From an uncultured bacterium (lineage in GTDB: Bacteria > Patescibacteriota > JABMPQ01 > CAVVCK01), in NCBI GenBank assembly GCA_963746775.1, contig CAVVCK010000002.1, forward strand, positions 431,656 through 495,655: 64,000 nucleotides of DNA, read 5' to 3'. Shown here in pieces: positions 418-60,526 of this stretch (positions within the stretch are counted from its first letter, which is position 1; each line of letters starts with the position of its first letter). The notes beneath the pieces were generated by a model. That model had not been told where the DNA came from, did not search any database, and worked only from the letters and a program-made list of their open reading frames with translations. The position numbers were made by a program, and so were the translations under genes.

Positions 418-2769
418 TTACTCTTTCTTACCTAACACAAACCCATAAACTTTATCACTGTTTATTTTATCTTCAACCCTAAATGTATTTTGATCTACTT
501 TTAAATTATCTGGATATTGCCAAATTGACTCATAGTCTGAAGGAAATTCTATTTGAGCCTTAAAATTAACCATATTAGGAGTTCCTGGTTGTTTTTGGAC
601 TAATAAACTATGTTTTTCAGCTAATTTACTTCCTAATGATATTTTAAAAGGCAGCTTATATTTTAACACTATTTCTTTTTCTTCTCCTACCTCTAACCCA
701 GAAAAGTTCCCAAAAACTGTCTTACCACTTTCTTCCGTTATACGAGTCTGAGATGGCTCATGAATCACTGTACTATCCTCAATCTCTTTTATTAAAGAGT
801 CGTCCTTTGCATTTCCATCTGCAGGCATTAAAACATTATAAAATTGATTATCAAAGCCAGAAGCATCTATTAAAATACTTCCTTTGGGTACATAGAGCCT
901 GAGATAAGAAACATTCTTAGTTCTAGTCCAAAAATCATTTTTATCACCATTGTGTTTTCTTTTTATTTTAACAGTATTTATGATTGACCCATCTGACTGT
1001 ATCTCGGAATTATAATCTATTCCTTGATCTATCACCTGATCTGTTTTACCTCCTCCAATATTACTTGCTACTAAAGATAAATAGTCTCCTTCTGTCTCCT
1101 TAACTTCCCCTCCCCAACCAAAATCTTTAATTAAATTTTCTAACTCTTCATCGGAAAAGTAAATTAAAATATCTTTCTTATAAAAACTATTTATAAATGC
1201 ATCCAGAACTTCTGGCCACTTATCTTTGTCGACATTAGATATTTTTTCAAAAAATTTTGGAAATAAATCAGCAATAAATTTTTTAGGTTTATTTAATTGC
1301 TTATCGTAATCTATCTCGACTTCTTTTTGAGCTTCGTTGAAAAAATTTTCGGAGGTAACTGTAACATTATAATCAGGCATTTCAATCGGTCCAGTTACTT
1401 TTAATAAATCTTCAAAAACAGAAGCTGTGAAAGTAACTACACCATCAACAGTTGGTCCACCTGCTTTCTCTTGCATTATATTAACTTTTTCAGCTGATGT
1501 TGGAAAATCTAGAAACCAATTAGCATCACGCATATATAACCTGGTTTGTATTAAGCGCATAGCTTCAGGAGCTTTTACATTATCTGTCAGCTGGCCATCA
1601 ATATTATAGGGTCCCTCTATTTTTAAATTGTTAATTTTACCCTCATCCATATCAAAAATACCATAAGTACCAATAAATCCTCCTGTAGCTCTTAACTCAC
1701 GATTGTTTTGAAAAAGTAATAAATATTTACGAGGCTGATTATGACCCAATAACTTTAATATTAAATCTACGTGAGCTGAAAAATATTCTAAGCCTTTTTC
1801 TAATTTAGGAATGCTTGATTTAAGTATTATCACTTGTGATTTATACTCTTCGGGAAAATCTTCTGCTTTTACATCTTCTAAATCAAGATTTGCTTGTTTA
1901 ATATTTTTTTGAGCTAATAAAATGTTTTCATAAGAAGAAGCCAGAGCAGTAGTAAATGATATTTTATTGTAAGAGGGTACTTTTTCGTTATTTTCTCCCT
2001 TAAATTCTGAAAATATATCTTCGGTTTTTGAAAAAGGTTCAAAAGCCTGAGTTAAACATTTAGAAGCATAGGAAACATTGGCACCAGCCTCTAATAATTT
2101 TTCTCCAGAATAAATACTTGATCCGCCAGGTACTTCTCTTAATAAACGAGCTATTATCTCACCTGTTCTGCCTAATTCTGATCCAGCCGCTTCAAAACGC
2201 TCAGCCGCTACATTAAACTTATAAGAAGCGAGATTATAGTCTTTTTCCATTATCGATCCTTCACCTGACATTAAATATTGATAAGCCACATTTGTATCAT
2301 CTAATATTTTGCCTTTTGTCTTAGATAAATTATTATCAACAAAAGCAAACCCTTTAATTGAAGATGTAAAAAATAAAGCAATTATTATAAAGGCAGTAAA
2401 TGATTTTTTTAAAAACAATAGCTTTTTAAATGAAATAAGCCCATTAGTCACTTGGTTAAAATTAAAATTTTTAACCACTGATTTTATAGTATTTAGCAAA
2501 TATTTCAATACTTTATCGTTCTTTCCCTTAAAACTTAAAATACTACTATTTTCTAAGTTTTGATTGGTCGCTCTTTCTGTCCCCTGTAACCTTAAATTAG
2601 ACTGAGTCGATTCATTAAATATTTTGTTTTGCTTATTTATATCAATGCTTCTTTTCTTATATACTTTATTTTTTTGGTCACCAAAATATTCCTGTTTTCT
2701 TTTTATCACTAAAACAGGTTTGATATCTGAGTAAAACCTTTTTTTATTTTTATTTGATTTTTCCTCCAT
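418..2769 (-). CDS. DUF4012-like membrane-anchored protein (N-terminal TM helix, large extracytoplasmic domain)
   Basis: 783-aa ORF. Motif LLFQNNRELRATGGFIGTYG resembles the DUF4012 signature. N-terminal TM segment. Context is next to glycosyltransferases. Confidence 0.55.
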   Translation of the reverse strand: MEEKSNKNKKRFYSDIKPVLVIKRKQEYFGDQKNKVYKKRSIDINKQNKIFNESTQSNLRLQGTERATNQNLENSSILSFKGKNDKVLKYLLNTIKSVVKNFNFNQVTNGLISFKKLLFLKKSFTAFIIIALFFTSSIKGFAFVDNNLSKTKGKILDDTNVAYQYLMSGEGSIMEKDYNLASYKFNVAAERFEAAGSELGRTGEIIARLLREVPGGSSIYSGEKLLEAGANVSYASKCLTQAFEPFSKTEDIFSEFKGENNEKVPSYNKISFTTALASSYENILLAQKNIKQANLDLEDVKAEDFPEEYKSQVIILKSSIPKLEKGLEYFSAHVDLILKLLGHNQPRKYLLLFQNNRELRATGGFIGTYGIFDMDEGKINNLKIEGPYNIDGQLTDNVKAPEAMRLIQTRLYMRDANWFLDFPTSAEKVNIMQEKAGGPTVDGVVTFTASVFEDLLKVTGPIEMPDYNVTVTSENFFNEAQKEVEIDYDKQLNKPKKFIADLFPKFFEKISNVDKDKWPEVLDAFINSFYKKDILIYFSDEELENLIKDFGWGGEVKETEGDYLSLVASNIGGGKTDQVIDQGIDYNSEIQSDGSIINTVKIKRKHNGDKNDFWTRTKNVSYLRLYVPKGSILIDASGFDNQFYNVLMPADGNAKDDSLIKEIEDSTVIHEPSQTRITEESGKTVFGNFSGLEVGEEKEIVLKYKLPFKISLGSKLAEKHSLLVQKQPGTPNMVNFKAQIEFPSDYESIWQYPDNLKVDQNTFRVEDKINSDKVYGFVLGKKE

Positions 2770-2800
2770 TGTTTTTGTTTTGCTTTTAAAATTATATCAC

Positions 2801-2840
2801 AAATACGTAGGGGTTCAAAATTTTGAACCCCTACGTATTT
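2801..2840. terminator. Perfect 18-bp palindrome AAATACGTAGGGGTTCAAAATTTTGAACCCCTACGTATTT, likely terminator after the GT4 gene
   Basis: Inverted repeat read directly from the sequence. It lies between two co-oriented genes. Confidence 0.5.
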
Positions 2841-2858
2841 GTAAATTATGTTTCATAT

Positions 2859-3995
2859 TTATTTTACATTTTCATAAATTTTTTGTGTCTCCTTCGCACA
2901 ATCTATCCAATTAAACTTTTTTATCTGTCTATAACCGTTATTAATCATATTATTTCTTAGTTGCTTATCTTTTAAAACTTTTTCGATATTTAAAACTATA
3001 TCTTCCCTATCTTTAGAATTAAAATATATTGCCGCCCTACCCAATATTTCAGGTAAAGAAGAAGTATTAGACGATATAACCGGTAAACCAAAACTCATTG
3101 CTTCTAGTCCTGGCAAACCAAAGCCTTCTATAAATGAAGGAAAAATATAAAGACTAGCTTTGGTATATAAATAAGCTAAATCTTTCTGGGAAGCAAAACC
3201 AAAAAATACTATTGAATTATCATGTAAAAGTCCTGTGCTATAAGCATCTTGTTTTAATCTTTTATAAAAATAATCTTCTTTCCCAATTAAAACTAGCTGG
3301 TGTGAAAAATTATTTCTTTTTTTAAATTCTTTGTAGGCCTCAATCATTCCTTCTAAGTTTTTATGAGGATAAGCATTGCCTACATACAAAATATAAGGCT
3401 TGGTTATTTTATGCTTTTCTAAAAATCCCGGCTCCGGAATGGATAACTGCCCACTCTCTACTCCGTCACAAGCCTCATAAGTAACTTCTACTTTATCTGA
3501 TCTTATTTTAAAATAACTTATCAAATCTTTTTTGGTAAATTCCGAAACCGTAATAACCTTTTTCGCTCTTCTAACAGCTGAATTAATAGCTAACTTATAG
3601 CCCAAATATTTAAATTTATACAATAATGGCCCTAAGGTAGTTGCCCTTTTAGTTGGAAATCTTAATAAAATTAAATCATGAATAGTAACTACGAAATCCC
3701 CTCGATATAATACTGGCACATTAAAATGAGGAAAATGCATCAAGTCAATCTTGTGCTCTTTTATCAATTTAGGCATTTTTAATTGTTCATCTAACGAATA
3801 CCATTTTAAATCAGCAACTATCTTTTCAAAATTTTCATTTTCAGGAATATATTCATCAAAATTTTCTTGGCGTAAAAAAATAATATACTGATTTGTTCTA
3901 TCAACTTTTTCTAAATTCTTTATTAATTTTTCTGTATAACGTCCCAGGCCTTTACCTTTAGGGCCGTAAAAGCGAGCATCTATTCCAATACGCAT
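2859..3995 (-). CDS. Glycosyltransferase family 4 (GT4)
   Basis: N-terminus MRIGIDARFYGPKGKGLGRYT and C-terminal EGFGLPGLEAMSFGLPVI motif are typical of GT1/GT4 retaining glycosyltransferases. Confidence 0.85.
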   Translation of the reverse strand: MRIGIDARFYGPKGKGLGRYTEKLIKNLEKVDRTNQYIIFLRQENFDEYIPENENFEKIVADLKWYSLDEQLKMPKLIKEHKIDLMHFPHFNVPVLYRGDFVVTIHDLILLRFPTKRATTLGPLLYKFKYLGYKLAINSAVRRAKKVITVSEFTKKDLISYFKIRSDKVEVTYEACDGVESGQLSIPEPGFLEKHKITKPYILYVGNAYPHKNLEGMIEAYKEFKKRNNFSHQLVLIGKEDYFYKRLKQDAYSTGLLHDNSIVFFGFASQKDLAYLYTKASLYIFPSFIEGFGLPGLEAMSFGLPVISSNTSSLPEILGRAAIYFNSKDREDIVLNIEKVLKDKQLRNNMINNGYRQIKKFNWIDCAKETQKIYENVK

Positions 3996-4164
3996 AATAG
4001 AATAAATATAATTAGTATCAAAATTCCTAATTTCTAATAAAATTTTTAATATCCAATGACAAATTATTTTTGAAATTTGACATTTGGATTTTTATTAGGA
4101 ATTAGAAATTGGTAATTGGAAATTAAAACACTGTATTACATAAAACAATATTAGTATAATCCTA
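3996..4164. repeat. Family-1 intergenic inverted-repeat element (GGAATTAGAAATTGGTAAT words)
   Basis: Arms AAAATTCCTAATTTCTAATAAAA and TTTTATTAGGAATTAGAAATTGG flank a nested palindrome ATCCAATGACAAATT...AAATTTGACATTTGGAT. The words are shared with five other loci. Confidence 0.6.
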
Positions 4165-5304
4165 TTACTTTTTATCTTCAAGCACACTTAACACGCTCTT
4201 TGCACATTCTTCCCATCTAAACTCCTTCACTCTCCCTAATCCTTTATTAATCAACCTTTGTCGCAAATTTTTATCAACTATTCCATTATAAACACCCAAA
4301 GCCAAATCATCAATATTATAAGGATCAATCAACAAAGCTGCATCTTGACATACTTCCGGTAAAGAAGAAACAAAAGAAGTTACTACCGGCACTCCACAAG
4401 CCATCGCCTCTAGTGCCGGAAAACCAAAGCCTTCATAAAAACTAGGATAAACAAATAATTTGGTTAAATTATATAAATAAGGCTTATCTTCTTCTTCTAT
4501 AAATCCTGGAAAAATTATATCTTTTTTATATTTTGATTTTTCCCAATTTTCAAATATCTTTTTATAGCACCAAGCTTTCTCCCCCGCAATAACTAATTTA
4601 TTATTAATTTTATTCTGGTCTCTTAATTTTTCATAAGCAGATATAAGCCCTACAATATTTTTGCGCGGCTCTATTGATCCTAGTGATAAAATAAAATCTT
4701 TTGGTAAATTATATTTTTTTCTAATTTCTTCCAATTTATTGTCGTTATTACAAACCTTTAAATTCTCATTTATTCCAGAATATATTATCCTGATTTTTTC
4801 TTCCGAAATGCCATATGTTAAAACTAGGTCATCTTTAGTAGCTTCTGATACTGCAATAATGTAATCATTGTCTTTAGCTAATTTCTTGGGGTTTACCACT
4901 CTATGCCAGAGTCTTCTCTTTAATGAGTAGAAATGGGAATAATGAGAAAAGGCTAAATCATGGAAAGTAATAATGTTTTGGCAATTTTTATCTAATGAAT
5001 AAAAAGAAATATTTGGTGCAAAGAATATATCACAATCTAAGATTTTACTTATTTTGGGATAGTTAAATAAAACAAAAGACAAATTTAATAATTTATTAGG
5101 TATTTTTGTTTTTTTTATCTCTACATTAGGAAAATCAAAGGCCTTATCTATATCAAAGGAAGGACCCTTAAATGAATTAAAAAAAAGCTTATATTGATTT
5201 TCTTGATCAATTTTAAAAAGATTAGTTAGAAGATTCAGGGTATAACCCTCTACTCCTGTTCTTTTACCTTCAGATAACATGCGAATATCTATACCTATTT
5301 TCAT
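4165..5304 (-). CDS. Glycosyltransferase family 4 (GT4)
   Basis: MKIGIDIRML N-terminus and EGFGFPALEAMACGVPVV motif. Confidence 0.85.
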   Translation of the reverse strand: MKIGIDIRMLSEGKRTGVEGYTLNLLTNLFKIDQENQYKLFFNSFKGPSFDIDKAFDFPNVEIKKTKIPNKLLNLSFVLFNYPKISKILDCDIFFAPNISFYSLDKNCQNIITFHDLAFSHYSHFYSLKRRLWHRVVNPKKLAKDNDYIIAVSEATKDDLVLTYGISEEKIRIIYSGINENLKVCNNDNKLEEIRKKYNLPKDFILSLGSIEPRKNIVGLISAYEKLRDQNKINNKLVIAGEKAWCYKKIFENWEKSKYKKDIIFPGFIEEEDKPYLYNLTKLFVYPSFYEGFGFPALEAMACGVPVVTSFVSSLPEVCQDAALLIDPYNIDDLALGVYNGIVDKNLRQRLINKGLGRVKEFRWEECAKSVLSVLEDKK

Positions 5305-5358
5305 TTATTTTTAGCTAATTTATCTTATTATATTAAATAAATATTTTATATTCAACAT

Positions 5359-5390
5359 AAATAGCCTAAATATGAATATTTAGGCTATTT
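5359..5390. other. Perfect inverted repeat AAATAGCCTAAATAT-gaa-TATTTAGGCTATTT (hairpin)
   Basis: Seen directly. It is followed by a T-rich run on the plus strand. Confidence 0.4.
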
Positions 5391-5414
5391 TAAACTATTT
5401 TTCACAAAAAAACC

Positions 5415-5444
5415 TTGACATTATTACTATTATGTGTTATCCTT
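5415..5444 (+). promoter_or_regulatory. Sigma70-like promoter candidate (TTGACA, ~17 bp, TGtgTTATCCT) facing the GC-rich RNA region
   Basis: TTGACA at 5415-5420. Weak -10 with a TG extension. Orientation matches the downstream plus-strand structured region. Confidence 0.3.
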
Positions 5445-5489
5445 TATTGTTTGTTCATTTACAAAATTTCCTTTTCTCTTTATAGCCCT

Positions 5490-5960
5490 AAAATTTAAGG
5501 CTTTAATGAGGAAAGGAGGTAGCATGAGTAGCTACCCGAGTGGGTTTGTCTAACAATAGGCAAAAATGCGAACCAGACCAAGATTCGACGGGGCGTCGAG
5601 GTCTGGTTGAACTTATTTTCCCCGTTAAACCTCTAACTGACAGAAGAAAGGAGGTTAACCCTGATTAAATCAGATTATGGCATGACGGCTTGCCATTTTC
5701 TGAAGAGCAAGAATAACCGTCAAACCCCCTGCATATTAAGGAGGTAAAATGCAGGTACACAAACGCTGGTTAGCAATGCTAACTAGCGCGATCTGAGAAA
5801 ACGCCACTCAGATCGTACAGAGGCGGTTCCCTGGGAGTTACCGCCGGGCGAAAAACTCCCAAACGGCCACGCTCAAGGCCACACCGAGACAGGCGATCTC
5901 GGCATTGAGCACAGGGGGCAAGCACCACATCGATCTTTTGCTTCGCCCCCACCCTTTTCA
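5490..5960 (+). ncRNA. GC-rich structured RNA candidate of unknown class (tmRNA-like D-loop motif, but not a canonical tmRNA or RNase P)
   Basis: About 55% GC against a ~30% background. No ORF longer than 62 aa. Pseudoknot-capable stems GGCGG(5822-5826)/CCGCC(5841-5845) interleave with GGGAGTT(5833-5839)/AACTCCC(5854-5860). Several nested hairpins. Motif GATTCGACGGGG. Three AAGGAGGT-ATG mini-ORFs. A promoter-like site lies upstream and a terminator downstream. Confidence 0.45.
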
Positions 5961-5993
5961 GAAAATATAATTAAATTGTATTTTGTGAAAATT

Positions 5994-6022
5994 AAAAAAT
6001 CACGCCTTAGGCGTGATTTTTT
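5994..6022. terminator. Bidirectional rho-independent terminator AAAAAATCACGCC-ttag-GGCGTGATTTTTT
   Basis: Perfect GC-containing stem with A/T tracts on both sides. Confidence 0.65.
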
Positions 6023-6048
6023 ATTATCTATTATTTTATTCAAAGTAC

Positions 6049-6069
6049 AGACAGGTTTCAAACCTGTCT
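6049..6069 (-). terminator. Hairpin AGACAGGTT-tca-AACCTGTCT immediately after the stop of the Wzz-like gene
   Basis: 9-bp perfect stem, 5 nt downstream of the stop at 6074. Confidence 0.45.
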
Positions 6070-6073
6070 TACC

Positions 6074-6688
6074 TTATTCTTCTTCCTTCAAATATTCTCT
6101 AAAAAATGCCAACCCCAAACCAATAAATATACCACCCAATAAACCAAACGCACCTACCAAATAAGGGTTATATTTTTTTAAAGTAATAATGGGTTCATCC
6201 GCTTCTACAGAAAACGAACTGTTACCTTCAGCATTTATTTCTAGAGTTTCAACTTTTTTCTTAGTCTCCTCTACTAAGGCTTTAGATAATTTACCCACCA
6301 CATCTCTATTGCTATTATTTAACCTCACGTCTATTAAATGAGAAGATAATTGCTTTGTCTTAACTTTTTTAGCTTCTTGATAAGCATCGCTCATTTTATC
6401 TTCTAAACCTGCTTCTTTGTAAACTAGGATTATAACTTCTGGAGTCTCAAGCCAACCGGTAATAGTATTGCTTAAATATTCAGCTGCCTGAATTGAATAA
6501 TAATTATCATACTGAAAATCTTCTGTTTTTTCTCTTTCAACTCTATGAATAGTCATTAAGATTGAGGCGTCAAAGCTGTCTTTTTGTAAAAACCCTAAAA
6601 TTAAAGATAAAGCTCCACATAAAACCCCTATAATTATAATAAATTTAATTTTTTCTTTTAGCACTTTAAAATAATCCTTTAAGTTCAT
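6074..6688 (-). CDS. Wzz/CpsC-like polysaccharide chain-length determinant (PCP family)
   Basis: 204 aa with an N-terminal TM (IIIIGVLCGALSLILGF), a periplasmic coiled segment and a C-terminal TM (LVGAFGLLGGIFIGLGLAFF). Confidence 0.6.
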   Translation of the reverse strand: MNLKDYFKVLKEKIKFIIIIGVLCGALSLILGFLQKDSFDASILMTIHRVEREKTEDFQYDNYYSIQAAEYLSNTITGWLETPEVIILVYKEAGLEDKMSDAYQEAKKVKTKQLSSHLIDVRLNNSNRDVVGKLSKALVEETKKKVETLEINAEGNSSFSVEADEPIITLKKYNPYLVGAFGLLGGIFIGLGLAFFREYLKEEE

Positions 6689-6785
6689 AAGTTTATGTTG
6701 TTTAAATATTGTTAATTATAAATTTAGACATTGGACATTTATTCGCCATTCAGATTCCTTAATTCTTAATTTTTAACAAATTACA

Positions 6786-7904
6786 CTAACTATATGTGCT
6801 TCTAATTTTCTCTTGGTATTTACTATACTCTTCTTCCACATAATTCTTAATCTTTTCTTTAAATAATTCAATATCATATTGCTTGGCATGTTCTCTAATC
6901 GCTTCTGGATCATATTTTTCCGCATCAAATTCTCTAATCTTATCAACTAATTTCCAAGGAGTTTGTTCGTCAAAAAATTCTCCTGTTATCCCTTCTTTAA
7001 TAGTCTCCCTGGCTCCGCCTTTGCGTAAAGCTATAACCGGCCTGCCCGATGCCATAGCTTCTACGGCCGATATGCCAAAGTCTTCTTCCTGAGGATATAT
7101 CAAAGCTCGGCAAGATGATAAATATTTGCTTTTTTCCTCATCACTTAATGGTCCTAGAAATTCTATATTTTTCTTGGCTTTTTTCTTTAAATTGTCATAC
7201 TCTTCTCCCGTACCAATTATTTTTAAAGGATATTCTAAGGCGTTAAAAGCTTCGACAGCCAAATCAACACGCTTATATGGCCTAAGCCTGGATACAATTA
7301 AAAAGTAATCCCCCACACTTTTAGAAACATAAAATTTATCCGTTTCAACTGGAGGATAAATAATATCACTTTCTTTCCCATAATATTTTTTAATTCTATG
7401 AGCTACAGTTTTGGAATTAGCAATATATTTGTCTACTCTATCAGCTGCCACCCTATCCCATTGCCTTATTCTATTTAAAACTAAAGGGAGCATTCTTTTA
7501 ATAACTGCCGGCTGTTTTAGTTCTTCTGTATAGCTATGCGTATCATTCCATAAATACCTAGTTGGTGAATGGCAATAACTAATATGTAGCGTATCCGGCT
7601 GTACAATCACGCCCTTCGAATAAGCTGAGCTATCAGATAAAACCACATCATAGCCTGATAGATCTAATCTTTCGATTGCAGCTGGCATTAAACTTAAATA
7701 CCATTTATATTGGCCGGATCCTCCGGGTAATTTTTGAATAAAGGAAGTTCTAATATCCATATCTTCAAAAAGCCCCCTAGTCTCTTTCTTGTCATAAGTT
7801 AGAGTATAGACTGGGGCCTTAGGATATAGCTCGTGGAATATTTCTAAAACTTTTTCTGCTCCACCAACTTGGTTTAGAAAATCATGTACTAAGGCAACCT
7901 TCAT
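6786..7904 (-). CDS. Glycosyltransferase family 4 (GT4)
   Basis: MKVALVHDFLNQVGGAEKV N-terminus and EDFGISAVEAMASGRPVIA motif. Confidence 0.85.
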   Translation of the reverse strand: MKVALVHDFLNQVGGAEKVLEIFHELYPKAPVYTLTYDKKETRGLFEDMDIRTSFIQKLPGGSGQYKWYLSLMPAAIERLDLSGYDVVLSDSSAYSKGVIVQPDTLHISYCHSPTRYLWNDTHSYTEELKQPAVIKRMLPLVLNRIRQWDRVAADRVDKYIANSKTVAHRIKKYYGKESDIIYPPVETDKFYVSKSVGDYFLIVSRLRPYKRVDLAVEAFNALEYPLKIIGTGEEYDNLKKKAKKNIEFLGPLSDEEKSKYLSSCRALIYPQEEDFGISAVEAMASGRPVIALRKGGARETIKEGITGEFFDEQTPWKLVDKIREFDAEKYDPEAIREHAKQYDIELFKEKIKNYVEEEYSKYQEKIRSTYS

Positions 7905-7973
7905 AGGTTAGATATTAGTTAGTAGTTAGTGGTGATTAGTAGATTCTACTCATCACAAACTACTCACTACAAA

Positions 7974-9353
7974 CTAATACGCTGCCCTCCCTATTATCAC
8001 AATCACCAACGTTCTAAAAAATATTTGTAAATCTAATTTTAGTGACCAATTTTCAATATAATAAGTATCTAGTTTTACTTCATCATCAAATTCTAACTCT
8101 GCTCCTCCGCTTACTTGGGCCATACCAGTCATACCAGGTTTAATAGCTAAAACTTTCTTATGCCATTTCTGGTATTGAGCTACTTCTTCTGGCTCATGAG
8201 GACGTGGTCCAACTAAACTCATTTCATTTCTTAATACATTAAAGAATTGTGGTAATTCGTCAATACGAGTTTTTCTTAAAATTCTACCCACTTTGGTAAT
8301 TCTAGGATCATCTTTCATTTTGAATAAAGGCCCTTTACGTTCACTGTATTTTAATAATTTCTTTTTCATTTTGTGGGCATTTTCAACCATGGAACGAAAT
8401 TTATACATCTGAAATTCATTTTTATTACCTACTCTCTTTAGTTTAACAAAAACAGATCCCTTAGAACCAAGCTTGATTACGATTGCTACAATTAGGAAAA
8501 GTGGTGAAAATATTATTATTCCAATTAATGAACCAATAATGTCTAGAGATCTTTTTAAAATTCTTCCCCAACCATCCAATGGTGTTCTTTTAAGCTCGAC
8601 TAAAGGAAATCCAGCTAGAGGCCTGACATCTATATTAGTTGCCTGAGTACCAAAAAAATCAGGAACGTACTTAAAGTCAATCTTTGCCTCATCAGCAAAA
8701 TCTTTTATTTCTAAAGTTTTACTTTTGGATATTTTAGAATCTGTCTGGATAATTTCATCAATTCCTTTACTTTTGCTTATTTTCCCTAAAGAGCCCATAA
8801 CTGAATCATTATACTCTTTGATATGTGCTACAACTATATAGCCTGATAAAGGTTTTTCGAAATTGCGAATTAAGTGTTTGCTAGCTGATCCATTGCCAAT
8901 CAATACTACTCTGTAAACACCAATTCCATATTTATATAATCTTCTTTTTATAACACGAATTATAGACCGACCAAAGATAACAAATATAATTGACAGCAAC
9001 CAAGTCACAATAATTAAAAATCTAGATGAAAAAAGTTCAGCTCTTAAAAATATATAAAAAGAAAAAATAGCTACACAAACAGTAACTCCTATAAAAGCAC
9101 CGTACAAATCATCAATAAATCTCCTTTTGGATATTTTATAAAATCCTAATATAGCAAATACAAGAAGACAAAAAGGTGCAGCAACTAATATTAGCAGTAA
9201 ATATTTTGATAAAGATAAATCAAATAATATTGGTCTGACTTCTGTAAAATAATTGGTAAAACGTAAAAAATAAGAAGCAAGAGCTGCTAATAGTATCATT
9301 AAAAAATCTAACGGTAAAAGCACAACTGTAAAAAATAATTCCGATTTTTTCAT
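7974..9353 (-). CDS. Polyprenyl-phosphate sugar phosphotransferase (WbaP/EpsL-like initiating 'bacterial sugar transferase')
   Basis: N-terminal TM helices. C-terminal KFRSM...DELPQFFNVLRNEMSLVGPRP catalytic motif. Confidence 0.85.
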   Translation of the reverse strand: MKKSELFFTVVLLPLDFLMILLAALASYFLRFTNYFTEVRPILFDLSLSKYLLLILVAAPFCLLVFAILGFYKISKRRFIDDLYGAFIGVTVCVAIFSFYIFLRAELFSSRFLIIVTWLLSIIFVIFGRSIIRVIKRRLYKYGIGVYRVVLIGNGSASKHLIRNFEKPLSGYIVVAHIKEYNDSVMGSLGKISKSKGIDEIIQTDSKISKSKTLEIKDFADEAKIDFKYVPDFFGTQATNIDVRPLAGFPLVELKRTPLDGWGRILKRSLDIIGSLIGIIIFSPLFLIVAIVIKLGSKGSVFVKLKRVGNKNEFQMYKFRSMVENAHKMKKKLLKYSERKGPLFKMKDDPRITKVGRILRKTRIDELPQFFNVLRNEMSLVGPRPHEPEEVAQYQKWHKKVLAIKPGMTGMAQVSGGAELEFDDEVKLDTYYIENWSLKLDLQIFFRTLVIVIIGRAAY

Positions 9354-9431
9354 ATATTAAATAATTGACCGCAAACTCTTTATTAGTACAGACAAGTTTA
9401 AAACTTGTTTCTTCATTATTAACTTTAAATA

Positions 9432-9882
9432 GGCAGGCTATAAGCCGAATTCTGTCTCATCCGCCATAGATTAACAGCGAAGGCGGATTGCCTTCATTGA
9501 AAACTACGGCGAATACTATGATCATCTATCTAGCCTTACTATTACTAGCAAGGTCATGCTTTTTATAAATTACACCAGATGGGGTTTACCCTATTATAAT
9601 GTTACCATTATAACCTGTGAGCTCTTACCTCACTCTTTTCACCATTGCCTGCCATAGCCTATAAAGGCGACGGCTGGCTGTATATGTCTCTGTGGCACTT
9701 TCCCTCACCCTATCTAGAAGATAGAGTGCAATTGCCGTTAGCAATCACCTTGTTTCAAAGTCCCAAGGATTAATAGAAAATCCTATGAGGTTTTTCTACT
9801 CTCGAATCCATAAGCTCTGAGGTGTTCGGACTTTCCTCCCCTTATTATTATATAAATAATAAGAAGCGATCATAAACCTGCC
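9432..9882 (-). ncRNA. rnpB: RNase P RNA, bacterial type A
   Basis: Minus-strand motifs GGGGAGGAAAGTCCGAAC (P4 5' strand), GGTGAAAAGAGTGAGGTAAGAGCTCAC (J11/12-P12 region) and GACAGAATTCGGCTTATAGCCTGCC (P4 3' strand/P1). The 5' GGCAGG pairs with the 3' CCTGCC. Confidence 0.85.
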
Positions 9883-10010
9883 TACTATAATAATAAAATA
9901 GCAAAGAAATTTATGCTATTATTAAAGTGGATTGGCTTATAACAAGCAATTTAGATAATATGTGAAAATTTTAACTACTCATATTATACTTATTTTAAGT
10001 CTTTTGTCAA

Positions 10011-10931
10011 CTATAACGATCCTTTTTTTCTATATAAATACACAATTGTTACAATCACAGCTAATAGAACACCGAAAATTAACCAAACAATCATAGAATT
10101 ATGAGCAAAAGGAAGACCTTCAATGTTCATGCCGTAAATTCCAGATAAAAGAGTTAGGGGTAGCAAAGATACAGAAATAATTGTTAATAATTTCATTATT
10201 TCGTTAGTCTTCAAGGAAACAATACTTTCATTAGTTTCAAATAAGCCATCTGAAATATTTTTATAATCATCCAAAATAGTCCAAACCTTCTCTAAATAGT
10301 CCCTAATATCATCAAAATATACTATATATTCTCTTCTTAAAATAAAATCTTTCTTAGAATGAGATAAACTATCAATTATAAATTTTTCCATACTCACGGT
10401 TCTCCTTATATCAAGAATTATTCTCCTAGCAAAAGCCAGCTCCTCAATAGTTTCTTTGTCTGCTTTTCTATCATAAATTTCTTCTTCTACGTTTGATACA
10501 AATTTACTTAATGATTTTAAACTTTCTGAATAATATGTTTTAAAAAGTGGGTCTAAAATTTTATAAAGTAAATAGCCTGATCCTCGGTTAGATAATTTCT
10601 TTTTATAATTATCACTTTTAGCAACTTTCAAAAATAAATTTTGGACAATATCAATTTTATTTTTTTGAATAGTTATTAAATAATTCTGTCCTACAAAAAT
10701 ATTTAATTCTAAATTTTTAAGCTTATTTTTTATAATTTGCGGAAAGTTTAAGATTGAAAAAATATAATGCTTATAAACATCAACTTTAGGAGGTTGCTTT
10801 TCTCCTAAAACATCCTGAATATCTAATTGATGAAATTGAAAATTTTCTTCTAGATAGTTAATGTCTTCATCTTGAGGATCAATAATATTTACCCAGTTAA
10901 TATTTCCAATTTTTGTAGATTTTAGAGCCAT
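10011..10931 (-). CDS. corA: Magnesium/cobalt transporter CorA
   Basis: 306 aa with two C-terminal TM helices and the GIYGMNIEGLP (GMN) signature. Confidence 0.8.
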   Translation of the reverse strand: MALKSTKIGNINWVNIIDPQDEDINYLEENFQFHQLDIQDVLGEKQPPKVDVYKHYIFSILNFPQIIKNKLKNLELNIFVGQNYLITIQKNKIDIVQNLFLKVAKSDNYKKKLSNRGSGYLLYKILDPLFKTYYSESLKSLSKFVSNVEEEIYDRKADKETIEELAFARRIILDIRRTVSMEKFIIDSLSHSKKDFILRREYIVYFDDIRDYLEKVWTILDDYKNISDGLFETNESIVSLKTNEIMKLLTIISVSLLPLTLLSGIYGMNIEGLPFAHNSMIVWLIFGVLLAVIVTIVYLYRKKGSL

Positions 10932-10935
10932 ATTT

Positions 10936-11370
10936 TTATTTCTTTAAGGCTTTATCTAAAACTAAATTTACCAGCCTGTCAGCTTCTTTATTTTTTTCTC
11001 TTCTTATATGTTTAAAAGTAACGGATTTAAAGCCCAAAGTCAAATTATGTATTTTGATAAAAAGCGGCTCTAAGTTCTTGTCTTTTACTCTATACTCTCT
11101 GTTCAGTTGTTTTACTACTAATTCACTATCTAAATAGCATAAAACCTCTATGGCTTTAAGCTTCTTTGCTCTTTCTAAACCTAAAATTAAAGCCCTGTAT
11201 TCTGCCTGATTATTTGTATTTATACCAATGTACTGTCCAATTTTAGCAATTATTTTTCTTTTAGAATTATAAACAACCGCCCCACAACCTGCTGGTCCTG
11301 GGTTACCTCTTGATCCTCCGTCTGAAAATATTATTAGTTTTTGGTTTTTCATAAATAAATACACTACCAA
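10936..11370 (-). CDS. rnhA: Ribonuclease HI
   Basis: DGGSRGNPGPAGCGAV N-terminal motif. Conserved catalytic Asp/Glu pattern. Confidence 0.85.
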   Translation of the reverse strand: MVVYLFMKNQKLIIFSDGGSRGNPGPAGCGAVVYNSKRKIIAKIGQYIGINTNNQAEYRALILGLERAKKLKAIEVLCYLDSELVVKQLNREYRVKDKNLEPLFIKIHNLTLGFKSVTFKHIRREKNKEADRLVNLVLDKALKK

Positions 11371-16932: not shown

Positions 16933-17847
16933 CTATCTAGCTAACTCCGCCGCCCCCACAACACCTGCATCTTTACCCAGCTTTGCTTTTTTAATTTCTA
17001 TCTTTCTCTTTTTAAAAAATACATTTTTGGTCGTTTCTTTCTTGGCTAATCTAAAAAGTAATTCAGATTTTCCTAAGCCCCCGCCAATTACTATTAAATC
17101 AGGATCTAAAATATTTACTAAATTAGAAATGCCCACGCCTAGATATTCGCCTGCATTTTGATATATCTTATAAGCTACACTTTTTGTACCTTTATCCATA
17201 GCTTCTTTTTCAATCTCTAAAGCGCTCTTCTTTTGTTTAGTTTTTTTATAATATTCATTTTCAATACTAGTACCAGAAGCATAGGCCTCCAGACAGCCTT
17301 CCTGCCCACAGCTGCATTTCCTACCACCATATTTAACAATCATATGCCCAGGTTCAGAAGCAAAGCCCTGCCCTTGATACATTTGTCCATTCAAAATTAA
17401 TCCTCCGCCCACCCCTGTACCCAAAGTAATCCCCACCACGCTGGAAAAACCCTTGCCTGCTCCATAAGTAGCTTCTGCTAAAGTAAAACAATTAGCATCA
17501 TTAGCTATTTTTACTGTAATTTTTTTACTTTTTTTAAATTCAAAACCAAGCTTGCTTTCTAGTGTCTTGGCTACTGGAATATTTTTCCAGCGGGAAATAT
17601 TGGGTGAATGCACAATTATACCAGTCTTTGAATCTATCTGACCAGCAATACCAACCCCAATTTTTTCTATTTTATCTACCTTTAATTTTTTAAAACCGGC
17701 AATTATTTCATCTAACAAATGCTGAAAACTCTGCGTATTTTCAGTCTGAAATTCCACTTTGGAAACTAATTTACCGCTATTATTAACTAATCCCATAGCC
17801 GTTTTTGTGCCTCCTACATCAATGCCAATTGTATTGTTTTGTATCAT
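16933..17847 (-). CDS. ROK-family glucokinase
   Basis: IGIDVGGTKTAMGLV ATPase motif. ROK zinc motif CSCGQEGCLE. Confidence 0.7.
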   Translation of the reverse strand: MIQNNTIGIDVGGTKTAMGLVNNSGKLVSKVEFQTENTQSFQHLLDEIIAGFKKLKVDKIEKIGVGIAGQIDSKTGIIVHSPNISRWKNIPVAKTLESKLGFEFKKSKKITVKIANDANCFTLAEATYGAGKGFSSVVGITLGTGVGGGLILNGQMYQGQGFASEPGHMIVKYGGRKCSCGQEGCLEAYASGTSIENEYYKKTKQKKSALEIEKEAMDKGTKSVAYKIYQNAGEYLGVGISNLVNILDPDLIVIGGGLGKSELLFRLAKKETTKNVFFKKRKIEIKKAKLGKDAGVVGAAELAR

Positions 17848-58525: not shown

Positions 58526-60526
58526 TTATTGCAAACTGAGCAAAGTCATAATTTTACATTCCTCTTGATCACAAGACTCTAACGCTTTACCAAAAATAGA
58601 ATTTCTTCTTTCTTCGTTTTCTTTTAAGATAGATTTTAGCCCATCAAAATCACTAGCCTCATCAGTATCGCGTAAAGTAAATTTCATTGCATATCCTTCT
58701 CGAGAGGAGGTTGTTAATAGATCTCCGATTTCTATATTACCATTTTCGTTGATAACTTTTGTCGGAATTCTACCCGCCAAGGTAATTGGTGCCAAATTTT
58801 CGGGCATTTCATAATCTGCATCTAGACCTCCTAAACTACTAAAATTATTTGATTCTCCATCGAAATTAAAAGAAATGTTAGGAGTAGTACTCACTACGCC
58901 AATTACTCTTTTATCATAAGATGTATTAGTATGACCAACTTTTACATTGTCTACTAAAACAACTACGTCTCCTTTTTCTAGTTTTTTATTCGTAGAAAAT
59001 CCTTCAGCAAGATCATAGGCAGCTCCATCAACCCCGGTATCATATGATATAGTACCGTCGCCAACATCTGGACAACCAGCTCCAGGATTATTGCTTGGAT
59101 CATCTACACAAAGTCCGCCAAAAACTGCAAATACACCTTCTCTATTATTTTCGCATAATGTTGAAGATGGATTACACTTATCTCCACCCCAACTATAACT
59201 TTTATCTCCACTTGTAGTAGCTCCATAGCCAGTTGATATAGCATATTCTCCAGTAGCACTGCCACGACCCAAAACAGCTGAGTAATCACCACTTGCCAAA
59301 GCATCATATCCTAAAGCCATAGAATAATCACCTATATTACTATTATCCCACTGAACACTGTCTACATATCCTGCTCTAAAAGCAGATTTTCTGGGATACC
59401 ATAATAATTTTGTAGCTTCACCAGAAGCTTCCAAGGTTGTAGCTGTACCATAATCACCTTGGGCCACTATCATGCCATCATCATAAATAGTTGTTCCGCC
59501 GTCTGTAGCATCTCCATATCCCCCACCCACAGAAGCAGTTCCAGTTACACCCAGTATTCCACCTAATGAAGTATTTCCACCAGCTAAAAAATTTCCATCT
59601 AAAAACAAGCTCCCGGTATCATAGATAGTAACTCCCGTAGATCCATACCCTCCGCCAACAGTTAAATTGCTAGATGCAATTACGTTACCTGTCAAAGCAC
59701 TTATTCCACCTACTGTCAACATCCCTCCTGTAGTAAGAGAACTTGCCGATAAAGCTCCATTAGCATTGATACCGCCCGTGGTGTCATAAATTGTTACCCC
59801 GCTATCACCAAATCCACCAGCGATATCAATATCAGTTCCATCATTATAAATTAAACTAGAAGCTTCCCAACCATTTGATCCATATCTTATCGTTTGGCCA
59901 GAAGTTCCCGCAGGTAAAATACCTCCGTCACTAGTTCCATCTCCATCTGAAGAACCTGTTATGGGTATCCAGGTAAATTGGCCATTTTGATTATAAGATA
60001 ATACCTGGCCAGCAGTTGCACTATTAGTTACATTAAGATTTTCTTCATTAATAATGTTTGCTCCTTCTAAATCTCCAACTGTTACTGCCCCGGCAAAATA
60101 ACCATTTTTCCATCTATTTGTAGTCGAACCAATATCATTAATATCAGTCATAGTTGGAATCATGGTATCAGATATTTTAAGGGGCATACCATCGGAAATA
60201 CCTTTGGATGTTCCTCTCCATATTTCACCATCAATACGGACATCATCTCCAAACGTTACTGGTATATTACTAATTCCATTATCATCTAAAGAAGAATTGA
60301 CAATTGTATGGTCGGCAAAAATAACACCGCCCAGATGCATGCCCTCGTAAAAATAACTTGCTCTGCCGGCACTTACAGCACTATCGGTTCTTAACCTTTC
60401 TCCGTAAATAACATCTTCGGCCGGTTGAATTTCCTCCGCAGTAGATGCCTTGGAAATATTTATATTGAAAAAGCAAAAAACAATCGCTAGAAATAAAATA
60501 ACTGCAAATTTAGCTATTTTAATCAT
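58526..60526 (-). CDS. Secreted Gly/Thr-rich beta-helix-like repeat protein with Cys-containing C-terminal domain (adhesin or tail-fibre-like)
   Basis: Signal peptide MIKIAKFAVILFLAIVFCFFNINISKA. N-domain paralogous to 57464..58489. Long GG.G/TT repeats. The DNA is locally GC-richer (~40%+) than its surroundings. Confidence 0.55.
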   Translation of the reverse strand: MIKIAKFAVILFLAIVFCFFNINISKASTAEEIQPAEDVIYGERLRTDSAVSAGRASYFYEGMHLGGVIFADHTIVNSSLDDNGISNIPVTFGDDVRIDGEIWRGTSKGISDGMPLKISDTMIPTMTDINDIGSTTNRWKNGYFAGAVTVGDLEGANIINEENLNVTNSATAGQVLSYNQNGQFTWIPITGSSDGDGTSDGGILPAGTSGQTIRYGSNGWEASSLIYNDGTDIDIAGGFGDSGVTIYDTTGGINANGALSASSLTTGGMLTVGGISALTGNVIASSNLTVGGGYGSTGVTIYDTGSLFLDGNFLAGGNTSLGGILGVTGTASVGGGYGDATDGGTTIYDDGMIVAQGDYGTATTLEASGEATKLLWYPRKSAFRAGYVDSVQWDNSNIGDYSMALGYDALASGDYSAVLGRGSATGEYAISTGYGATTSGDKSYSWGGDKCNPSSTLCENNREGVFAVFGGLCVDDPSNNPGAGCPDVGDGTISYDTGVDGAAYDLAEGFSTNKKLEKGDVVVLVDNVKVGHTNTSYDKRVIGVVSTTPNISFNFDGESNNFSSLGGLDADYEMPENLAPITLAGRIPTKVINENGNIEIGDLLTTSSREGYAMKFTLRDTDEASDFDGLKSILKENEERRNSIFGKALESCDQEECKIMTLLSLQ

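Follow-up and report, generated by a model that had tools for sequence, protein, structure and literature searches.

The polysaccharide locus of an AT-rich, Parcubacteria-like genome contains a GC-rich island in the spacer between its wzz gene and a glycosyltransferase gene, which raises the question of what this island encodes. It lies at positions 5490-5960 of the 64-kb stretch of the Patescibacteriota contig CAVVCK010000002.1 analysed here (the whole stretch is called the window below), and a first-pass annotation had listed it as a candidate structured RNA of no recognised family on the plus strand. The analysis answers that the island is a discrete accessory RNA gene with a conserved, covarying structure. 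Near its 5′ end it carries a nine-codon mini-gene whose Ser-Gly-Phe core, judging from its codon usage, is under selection at the amino acid level. The reading that we favour, with a confidence a little short of even, is a stand-alone accessory plus-strand RNA gene of about 570 nt, whose mini-gene would act via the ribosome translating it.

An accessory RNA gene in the wzz spacer

The GC content is 49.3% over 5490-5960 and 56.9% over 5750-5960, compared with a mean of 31.4% (standard deviation 4.4%) for the window. Among all 470-nt intervals of the 64 kb, 5490-5960 ranks first, about 4 standard deviations above the mean. It had been singled out within the first 9 kb and credited with about 55% GC; its standing extends to the whole window, and the percentage applies to the 3′ half, not to the entire island. 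Other GC bumps, at 17251-17500 and about 59000-59900, are protein-coding. As previously noticed, the island has no long open reading frame (ORF) and runs antiparallel to its neighbours: there is no ORF of 60 aa or more inside it, two 62-aa ORFs merely graze its 3′ edge, and all neighbouring genes from 418 to 11370 are on the minus strand.

Relatives were found via homologs of the adjacent Wzz-like protein (75-81% identity) on contigs of related Parcubacteria. A homologous RNA is present at the same place and in the same orientation in three lineages (L002, L060/61 and L074-76). In five others (L001, L003, L062-64, L065 and L072/73), the GC-rich element is absent from the locus, and a short AT-rich spacer or other cargo lies between wzz and the next gene. 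Presence in 4 of 9 related lineages, counted at the wzz locus only, indicates that the element is accessory and not a housekeeping RNA. The RNA bodies are mosaic. In pairwise comparison, the first 50-100 nt are common to all four; L002 and L060 also share a 235-nt 3′ domain, L060 and L074 a 41-nt module, and L074 and the window a 20-nt module in shifted position. No RNA body was found beyond the wzz locus when the four RNAs were compared with 78 fetched loci by blastn, which matched the mini-ORF region only, and no further copy of the RNA element was found elsewhere in the window.

A sigma-70-type promoter-like site, TTGACA-17-TATCCT with an upstream TG (10 of 12 consensus matches), is located at 5415..5443 on the plus strand, and transcription would start near 5450. 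At the other end, 5993..6023 forms a bidirectional intrinsic terminator of 14 bp with a 3-nt loop, an A run before it and a T run after it. Both the promoter-like site and the perfect terminator had been pointed out in the first pass. In L074, a promoter-like site (TTGACT-17-TAATAT) is found in the same place, and in both the window and L074 the element is on its own, preceded by a TTGACx-17-TAnnnT promoter. Identity between the window and L002 is 91% over the terminator and its preceding AT-rich spacer.

The plus strand of the island folds at -193.8 kcal/mol, compared with -137.5 +/- 5.8 kcal/mol for dinucleotide shuffles (z = -9.6); the homologs give z = -8.2 (L002), -7.8 (L074) and -7.1 (L060). 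The minus strand of the island has z = -7.9, and in 3 of 4 homologs the plus strand is better than the minus strand by 15-20 kcal/mol. The plus strand is indicated by G.U pairs in the conserved helices (A.C if the minus strand were transcribed), by the promoter and by the mini-gene described below. This agrees with the structured plus-strand RNA initially proposed.

The conserved structure is best illustrated by an H-type pseudoknot at 5822..5860 (plus strand), which had been anticipated as an interleaved pair of helices. Stem S1 pairs GGCGG (5822-26) with CCGCC (5841-45), stem S2 pairs GGGAGUU (5833-39) with AACUCCC (5854-60), and loop 3 is GGGCGAAA (5846-53). The pseudoknot is common to the window, L002 and L060. 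S1 reads GGUCG/CGGCC in L002 and GGACG/CGUCC in L060, which gives 2 compensatory columns. S2 reads GUGGGUU/AACCCUC and GAGUGUU/AACUCUC, respectively, with 2 compensatory columns and one mismatch each, and the loop 3 sequence GGCGAAA is kept. For the 3′ domain shared by L002 and L060, RNAalifold gives 65 pairs, of which none is broken, with 3 compensatory and 9 one-sided changes. Conservation and covariation of helices are observed in the homologs.

A mini-gene selected at the peptide level

The mini-gene at 5524..5553 (plus strand), ATG AGT AGC TAC CCG AGT GGG TTT GTC TAA, encodes MSSYPSGFV (peptides are given here without the stop that ends them) and belongs to an x0-3-YPSGF-x-stop family. 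Its own ribosome-binding site is a Shine-Dalgarno (SD) sequence, SD1 (AAGGAGGU, 5513..5520, plus strand), 3 nt before the AUG at 5524; the SD1 part GAGGAAAGGAGG is identical in all four homologs. Two mini-genes are present in L002 (MLYPSGFD and MFGYPSGFR), two in L060 (MLRRYPSWFEDI and MQKYPSGFV), and one, with a GTG start, in L074 (xYNHTSGFN).

Selection on the peptide was assessed in nine copies that came from synteny or from the neighbourhood of other matches, outside pattern selection. Ser-Gly-Phe is invariant in all nine, encoded by AGC, AGT, TCG or TCT for Ser, by GGA, GGC, GGG or GGT for Gly and by TTC or TTT for Phe. In eight of them, Phe is followed by a single variable codon and then the stop, and an SD-like site precedes the start in every copy. 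Across the mini-genes as a whole, pattern-derived ones included, the last residue varies (V, D, R, T, P, L, S, M, C, I, N, G). An RNA hairpin in place of a peptide was considered, with the Y of TAY set against the N of GGN, and was rejected for lack of covariation (by eye). The absence of a covarying base-pairing scheme in the core, together with synonymous codon use, argues for selection on the peptide. The mini-ORFs had been treated as incidental in the first-pass annotation; for the first of them this view has to be given up.

Two hairpins enclose the signals that would start translation. P1 (5470..5516, plus strand), found in both the minimum free energy (MFE) and the centroid folds, pairs CCUUUUCUC (5470-5478) with GAGGAAAGG (5508-5516), so that the first half of SD1 is locked in the stem. 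It is kept in L002, L060 and L074: CCUUUYCUC pairs with the invariant GAGGAAAGG, and a U.G pair of the window is C-G in L060 with the SD strand unchanged. P2 (5518..5536, plus strand), GGUAGC/GCUACC, has the start codon in its loop, and the Tyr-Pro codons pair with the SD tail. Equivalents of P2 that hide the start codon exist in L002 (GGAUG/UAUCC), in L060 (AGGAUGCU/GGUAUCCU) and in L074. Their sequences differ, but in each of the four RNAs the Tyr-Pro codons are the partner of the SD tail or of the start codon.

The octamer AAGGAGGT occurs four times in the 64 kb, with three copies within 233 nt at 5513, 5648 and 5738. Each of the three had been taken to serve an ATG. This stands for MSSYPSGFV, while the second octamer is followed by its ATG (5677) only after 21 nt, so that 'MA' is not a credible ORF. 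In the SD2 module (5628..5656, plus strand), AACCUC pairs with GGAGGUU and sequesters the SD, and there is no properly spaced start codon. The corresponding part of the L002 RNA contains the intact second mini-gene MFGYPSGFR; SD2 is probably a decayed mini-gene module. The third copy belongs to the SD3 hairpin (5728..5796, plus strand, with its ORF), CCUGCAU and AUGCAGG with AAGGAGGU in the loop, which is followed by ORF3, MQVHKRWLAMLTSAI (5749-5796). ORF3 and the L060 mini-gene MQKYPSGFV have the same SD-in-loop hairpin (CUGCAU..GGAGGUAAA..AUGCAG) and the same first two codons; in L060 the hairpin CUGCAU..GGAGGUAAAAAUGCAG leads into MQKYPSGFV. ORF3 is, by this resemblance, likely a decayed copy of a YPSGF mini-gene.

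Related mini-genes in other phyla

Species genomes from GTDB were scanned with a pattern of SD, ATG, 1-2 codons, TAYCCNAGYGGNTTY, one codon and stop. The scan gave three matches, all of them in-frame mini-ORFs, compared with about 0.3 in-frame matches expected by chance (our own arithmetic): MLYPSGFT in Olivibacter, MVYPSGFT in a Saccharibacteria metagenome-assembled genome (MAG) and MGYPSGFG in an unclassified MAG. In two of the three, a second related copy is nearby, namely MKLIRWYLSGFK 150 nt further on in the Saccharibacteria MAG and MYTSGFV before the match in the unclassified MAG. A slightly looser pattern, which again imposed the SD, matched 27 metagenome contigs of 35-61% GC. These include 14 distinct in-frame mini-ORFs with a true stop versus 5 out-of-frame matches; about 2 in-frame ones would be expected by chance (again our own arithmetic). 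The metagenome matches support the family via frame, stop and co-occurrence statistics. Two exact matches are present in L054, and L047 contains, besides its match, the related MFNFTSGFT, a copy obtained outside the pattern. By these matches, the family would span Parcubacteria, Saccharibacteria, Bacteroidota, probable Firmicutes (gut-metagenome contigs) and other metagenome contigs.

At no fewer than eight loci, a conventional gene begins 40-80 nt downstream of the mini-gene (L030/40, L039/42/54, L053, L033 and L034-38). These genes are mutually unrelated and include a Crp-like regulator, secreted proteins, a DUF6133 Flp-pilin-like gene after tadC, and orphans. In L031, L032, L047, L055 and the four Parcubacteria RNAs, the mini-genes are in stand-alone structured RNAs with no downstream gene. 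In L039/L042, pairing of the spacer with the final codons of the mini-ORF is apparently kept by a change from G-C to A-U (by eye, not computed). No local RNA structure around the mini-ORF was found to be shared across phyla.

Viral sequences were also searched. The loose YPSGF pattern had 25 matches in viral contigs, all within longer ORFs or without a stop, and a pattern for the 5′ module of the candidate phyla radiation (CPR) RNAs had 2; both sets are attributed to chance. The RNA had no match in phages by blastn in a distant setting. For the gut-Firmicutes locus, plasmids gave no match and phages a single unannotated one. In the library searched, no paper contains the YPSGF string, and nothing relevant turned up on GC-rich non-coding RNAs of CPR bacteria or on upstream ORFs encoding heptapeptides; neither the RNA nor the peptide seems to have been described.

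Several of these loci have features of their own. L055 (2340-3520) contains two tandem paralogous units resembling small RNAs (sRNAs), whose promoters are identical and whose 3′ domain is conserved, yet whose mini-ORFs differ (MYPSGFI versus MLLLWW), which suggests exchangeable mini-gene cassettes on a common RNA chassis. The MYPSGFT contig L033 encodes, among small genes, a tRNA-Pro and a suppressor tRNA with anticodon UUA (818-891 and 2500-2567) and looks like a phage with stop-codon recoding. MYPSGF[PL] mini-ORFs are found in gut-metagenome contigs of about 50% GC (L034, minus strand, at 5186-5209 in reverse-complement coordinates; L035-L038, L052, L056 and L057). By our own sequence reading, not by a Pfam match, their setting looks like a Tad-type pilus operon, with the mini-ORF between possible TadC-like and DUF6133 Flp-pilin-like genes. 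In Olivibacter, a member of the Bacteroidota, the mini-ORF (L030, minus strand, at 3024-3050 in reverse-complement coordinates) follows a full AAGGAGG SD sequence, and so does that of L040, which is closely similar; SD-led initiation is rare in this phylum.

Other parts of the RNA and known families

The remaining parts of the RNA are predicted hairpins on the plus strand. The module AACCAGACC-AAGAU-UCGAC-GGGGC-GUCGA-GGUCUGGUU (5571..5608) holds the motif GATTCGACGGGG; its 20-nt core AAGAUUCGACRGGGCGUCG is 95% identical in L074, where it is located in the 3′ half. Two perfect hairpins, GCUGGUUAGC/GCUAACUAGC (with one G.U pair) and CGAUCUGAG/CUCAGAUCG, occupy 5765..5815. Downstream of the pseudoknot, GCUCAA..CCGAGA..UCUCGG..UUGAGC forms a two-tier hairpin (5871..5910; strands at 5871, 5884, 5897 and 5905). 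L002, L060 and L074 each have an analogous one immediately 5′ of their clamp, and its pairs show compensatory changes when L002 is compared with L060. The clamp itself is a GC-rich hairpin, GGGGGCAAGC/GCUUCGCCCCC, followed by ACC (5914..5953). It is kept in all four RNAs (13 bp with G.U in L002, present in L060, weaker in L074), and the ACC is kept in three, with AUU instead in L074. The motifs that the first pass had listed are all present at the positions given for them, the pseudoknot strands and the nested helix included (GATCTGAG at 5790, CTCAGATC at 5807, GGGGGCAAGC at 5914, GCTTCGCCCCC at 5940, GATTCGACGGGG at 5582 and TTGACA at 5415).

Rfam 15 at gathering threshold finds only RNase P in the whole window. 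This is a bacterial class A RNase P RNA at 9425-9885 on the minus strand (166 bits, with long insertions relative to the model), which had already been recognised as lying outside the island; in L002, it is at 1924-2337, in the same relative position. Within 5450-5960, nothing credible is found at E <= 10, the weak matches being terminator look-alikes, and the mini-ORF RNAs in 17 related loci likewise fall in no Rfam family. OLE, ROOL, GOLLD, raiA, HEARO, 6S, SRP and riboswitches were rejected for want of a score at the gathering threshold.

The resemblance to tmRNA (RF00023, including permuted forms) deserves separate consideration. The element is of the same size class, forms a GC island in an AT-rich genome and has an H-type pseudoknot and a short ORF; moreover, GAUUCGACGGGG resembles the tmRNA 5′ region. 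The hallmarks of tmRNA are an acceptor stem with G3.U70, a T-arm, CCA, a tag frame without SD or AUG that ends in ..LAA, and near-universal occurrence. The island, in contrast, has no tRNA-like domain, that is, no acceptor stem or T-arm, and no degron-like tag. Its 3′ clamp has G3-C and not G.U, its loops are not T-loop-like, its ORFs have SD and AUG, and the element is missing at the locus in 5 of 9 related lineages. ARAGORN finds 0 tRNA or tmRNA genes in the window, permuted tmRNA included, and six-frame translation reveals no tmRNA-tag-like frame; these results and Rfam agree with the earlier remark that T-arm, CCA and tag ORF are lacking. The motif GATTCGACGGGG, once compared with the tmRNA D-loop, is part of the local hairpin UCGAC-GGGGC-GUCGA. 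This movable module recurs elsewhere in the L074 RNA, so that the comparison with a D-loop fails. In L032, a 5′ end resembling that of tmRNA was confirmed by neither Rfam nor ARAGORN.

The possibility of a degraded protein-coding gene, which had been named as what would overturn the RNA proposal, was not borne out. Six-frame segments compared with the homologs by tblastn matched only the nucleotide-conserved ends and the mini-ORF, and the best Pfam match (Glyco_transf_4, E = 0.08, 13 bits) is noise.

Potential function of the mini-gene

The favoured reading, a dual-function RNA with a ribosome-coupled mini-gene, can be outlined as follows. The RNA would be transcribed from the promoter predicted at 5415-5443 to the terminator at 5993-6023. 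The nine-codon gene at its 5′ end would be translated, with its SD and start locked in P1 and P2. The remaining 400 nt or so would form a GC-rich chain of hairpins with one H-type pseudoknot, a terminal GC clamp and two decayed mini-gene modules. The mini-gene may act in cis through its own translating ribosome: as a nascent-chain sensor, it would make that ribosome pause on the stop codon or beside it, and the presence of the ribosome would rearrange the RNA nearby. The downstream gene would be the one to respond in other phyla; on the Parcubacteria RNAs the ribosome would open P1, P2 and adjacent hairpins and may influence the lifetime of the scaffold or its later modules. The 5′ hairpin and the GC-rich body may keep the scaffold RNA long-lived.

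Several observations are consistent with this reading. First, a free N-terminus, an invariant S-G-F, one free residue and a stop make up the signature of a nascent-chain sensor. This pattern would be typical of peptides that function inside the ribosome at a fixed stall distance, and less so of a diffusible ligand. Second, in other phyla the mini-gene is placed as an upstream ORF, as would suit a translational sensor that acts in cis. Leader and arrest peptides (ErmCL/ErmDL, CatA86L/CmlAL, TnaC, SpeFL and the eukaryotic MAGDIS upstream ORF) are likewise encoded by very short SD-led ORFs with conserved C-terminal residues, a conserved distance to the stall or stop and a free N-terminus. Like them, the mini-gene has its own ribosome-binding site and conserves C-terminal amino acids with synonymous variation; in many loci it lies 40-80 nt before diverse genes, and flanking RNA pairs with the ORF codons. 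Unlike them, the YPSGF peptide has an unrelated sequence, there may be several copies per RNA, and the window and several CPR or MAG loci have no downstream gene.

The RNA as a whole resembles dual-function sRNAs (RNAIII/hld, SgrS/SgrT, SR1/SR1P), which are stand-alone transcripts, a few hundred nt from promoter to terminator, that fold into a conserved secondary structure and contain a small ORF. The island has its own promoter and terminator by consensus matches and a conserved structure by covarying helices and z values of -7 to -10. It differs from them in the length of the peptide (7-12 residues versus 26-43 or more) and in a body that is mosaic and accessory. The 5′ stabilisers of Gram-positive mRNAs (aprE leader, STAB-SD) provide another parallel: a 5′ stem-loop and a very strong SD protect RNA from 5′-end-dependent decay, and P1 is about 20 nt past the predicted start, by a very strong SD. 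In the window, unlike in these stabilisers, the SD is inside the stem, and a stabilising role would be a prediction from this arrangement.

A number of points weigh against this reading. Between the mini-ORF and the terminator, the window contains no gene that a cis-acting sensor could control. With SD1 and the AUG both sequestered, only poor translation of ORF1 is to be expected from the ground-state fold. Ribosome stalling is deduced purely from the conservation pattern, and transcription and translation of the element are themselves predictions. The MFE of the window minus strand is slightly lower than that of the plus strand (-197.9 versus -190.8 kcal/mol). The RNA bodies are four in number and mosaic, so that the covariation statistics are thin. 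Finally, the metagenome pattern allowed only synonymous variation of the core, and its matches therefore lend no support to the synonymous-substitution argument.

The foremost rival, which we regard as rather unlikely, is that the RNA is an mRNA for a free, trans-acting micropeptide of 7-12 residues (x-YPSGF-x), which would act as a signal, inhibitor or cofactor precursor; the scaffold would stabilise the message and the copies would raise the yield. It accounts for stand-alone RNAs with two or three related mini-genes and no downstream gene (L002, L060, L031, L032 and L047), and it shares with the ribosome-coupled mini-gene the peptide-level selection in nine copies. A precedent exists in mccA, the heptapeptide gene of microcin C, which also has about 7 codons and a strong SD followed by stabilising RNA structure. 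The YPSGF mini-genes, however, have no conserved C-terminal Asn and are in diverse contexts. No MccB-like (ThiF-family) adenylating enzyme or exporter is near the window element, whose neighbours are GT4, Wzz, Bac_transf, CorA and DUF4012 genes, and no modifying enzyme, exporter or receptor was found to co-occur among the diverse neighbours of the mini-genes. Neither the length of the N-terminus (0-6 residues) nor the last residue is constrained, while the stop is fixed one codon past Phe, which is odd for a ligand. Many loci place the mini-gene as a classic upstream ORF 40-80 nt before unrelated genes, and the SD and start are sequestered in all four CPR homologs.

It is improbable, though conceivable, that the RNA is purely non-coding, a sponge for a protein or the 30S subunit or a riboregulator, with SD-like motifs as binding sites and untranslated mini-ORFs. 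The extreme fold z values in all four homologs and the covarying pseudoknot and hairpins would be expected of such an RNA. So would the cluster of AAGGAGGU motifs, mostly in hairpins or loops, and the anti-SD-like CCUCC/GGAGG hairpin in L002 and L060. An RNA motif, however, could hardly account for Ser switching between AGY and TCN and for the use of all Gly and Phe codons while S-G-F is invariant. The same peptide occurs in unrelated contexts of other phyla without a shared RNA structure, and conservation of the RNA body ends with the four homologs at the wzz locus.

We give little credence to a non-functional scar of foreign GC-rich DNA, the remnant of a mobile cassette that lost its cargo. 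Variable presence at the same spacer, mosaic bodies, orphan GC-rich cargo genes directly upstream in L002 and L060, and the decayed look of SD2 and ORF3 in the window are all compatible with it. Yet the promoter and terminator are intact, as are mini-gene 1, its hairpins P1 and P2, the pseudoknot and the clamp. Compensatory changes maintain the helices, z values of -7 to -10 are unexpected for decaying DNA, and there is no protein-level similarity in any frame.

Even less credible is an antisense or insulator function for the polysaccharide operon, by which the element would uncouple wzz from the downstream glycosyltransferases or read through antisense into wzz. The orientation opposite to all neighbours, the bidirectional terminator in common with wzz and a minus-strand promoter-like site (5355-5327) that could restart the downstream glycosyltransferase gene speak for it, but empty sites already have their own bidirectional terminator in the spacer, the strong terminator speaks against read-through, and the conserved peptide, the pseudoknot and the 400-nt scaffold would be left unexplained. 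A divergent tmRNA or another known large RNA (OLE, ROOL, GOLLD, raiA, HEARO, SRP or 6S) can, on the searches described above, be dismissed with near certainty.

Genomic neighbourhood

The genes between 418 and 11370 encode a DUF4012 protein, three family 4 (GT4) glycosyltransferases, the Wzz-like protein, a Bac_transf sugar transferase, CorA and an RNase H-like protein. The last of these, a 144-aa RNase H / RVT_3 protein at 10936-11370 (minus strand), adjoins CorA, an arrangement kept in L001 and L002. Perfect hairpins flank the element: AAATAGCCTAAATA/TATTTAGGCTATTT at 5359-5390 and ACAGACAGGTTT/AAACCTGTCT at 6047-6069. The latter is just past the wzz stop and is present in L060 too. The two may be the operon's own terminators or marks of a cassette boundary.

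The wzz neighbourhood is a hot spot of insertions and deletions in related Parcubacteria (L001 4586-4852; L062 2541-2921; L063 799-1179 and 1846-2250; L003 2525-3001). The inserts include a 23S_rRNA_IVP-family gene upstream of wzz in some relatives and, past wzz, an Ocnus-like 158-aa gene in one relative and a minisatellite of 4-16% GC in another. In L002, the RNA element is 3′ of a 270-aa DHH-motif gene of about 60% GC, and in L060/61 it is 3′ of a 356-aa HD-motif gene, along which GC rises from about 40% to 55-60%. Orphan genes far richer in GC than the Parcubacteria contigs carrying them (about 33%) are found at L002 6425-7237 (minus strand), L066-L071 (5001-5822), L060 3615-4703 (minus strand) and L068 7830-9874. 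The DHH-motif 270-aa family (60-65% GC) occurs at several unrelated loci, with a tandem pair in L071, and in L002 and L066 at least its copies are behind a non-coding leader of 370-700 nt. Another GC-rich orphan pair encodes 385-aa and 296-aa proteins, the latter with a weak radical-SAM match. The GC-rich orphan proteins have no Pfam match above cut-off, and their neighbours are likewise uninformative. The GC-rich cargo was considered as a partner of the RNA and rejected, as DHH-motif homologs (P0016-24) at other loci have no adjacent mini-ORF RNA.

Implications

Beyond the window, we consider it possible, but doubtful, that x0-3-Y-P-S-G-F-x-stop is a new cross-phylum nascent-peptide sensor: a portable module of 7-12 codons that would halt the ribosome at the stop on a signal, placed as an upstream ORF before unrelated genes and, in CPR bacteria, on a mosaic GC-rich pseudoknotted scaffold, sometimes in several copies, which would represent a new RNA family. 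Genes of 7-12 codons are invisible to annotation. If true, a family conserved at the amino acid level across CPR, Bacteroidota and probable Firmicutes would be a new portable translational control device or micropeptide, and the mini-gene is small enough for direct cell-free testing. GC-rich islands in AT-rich CPR genomes can flag accessory RNA cassettes besides housekeeping RNAs, and the polysaccharide locus of these organisms is a hot spot for such cassettes.

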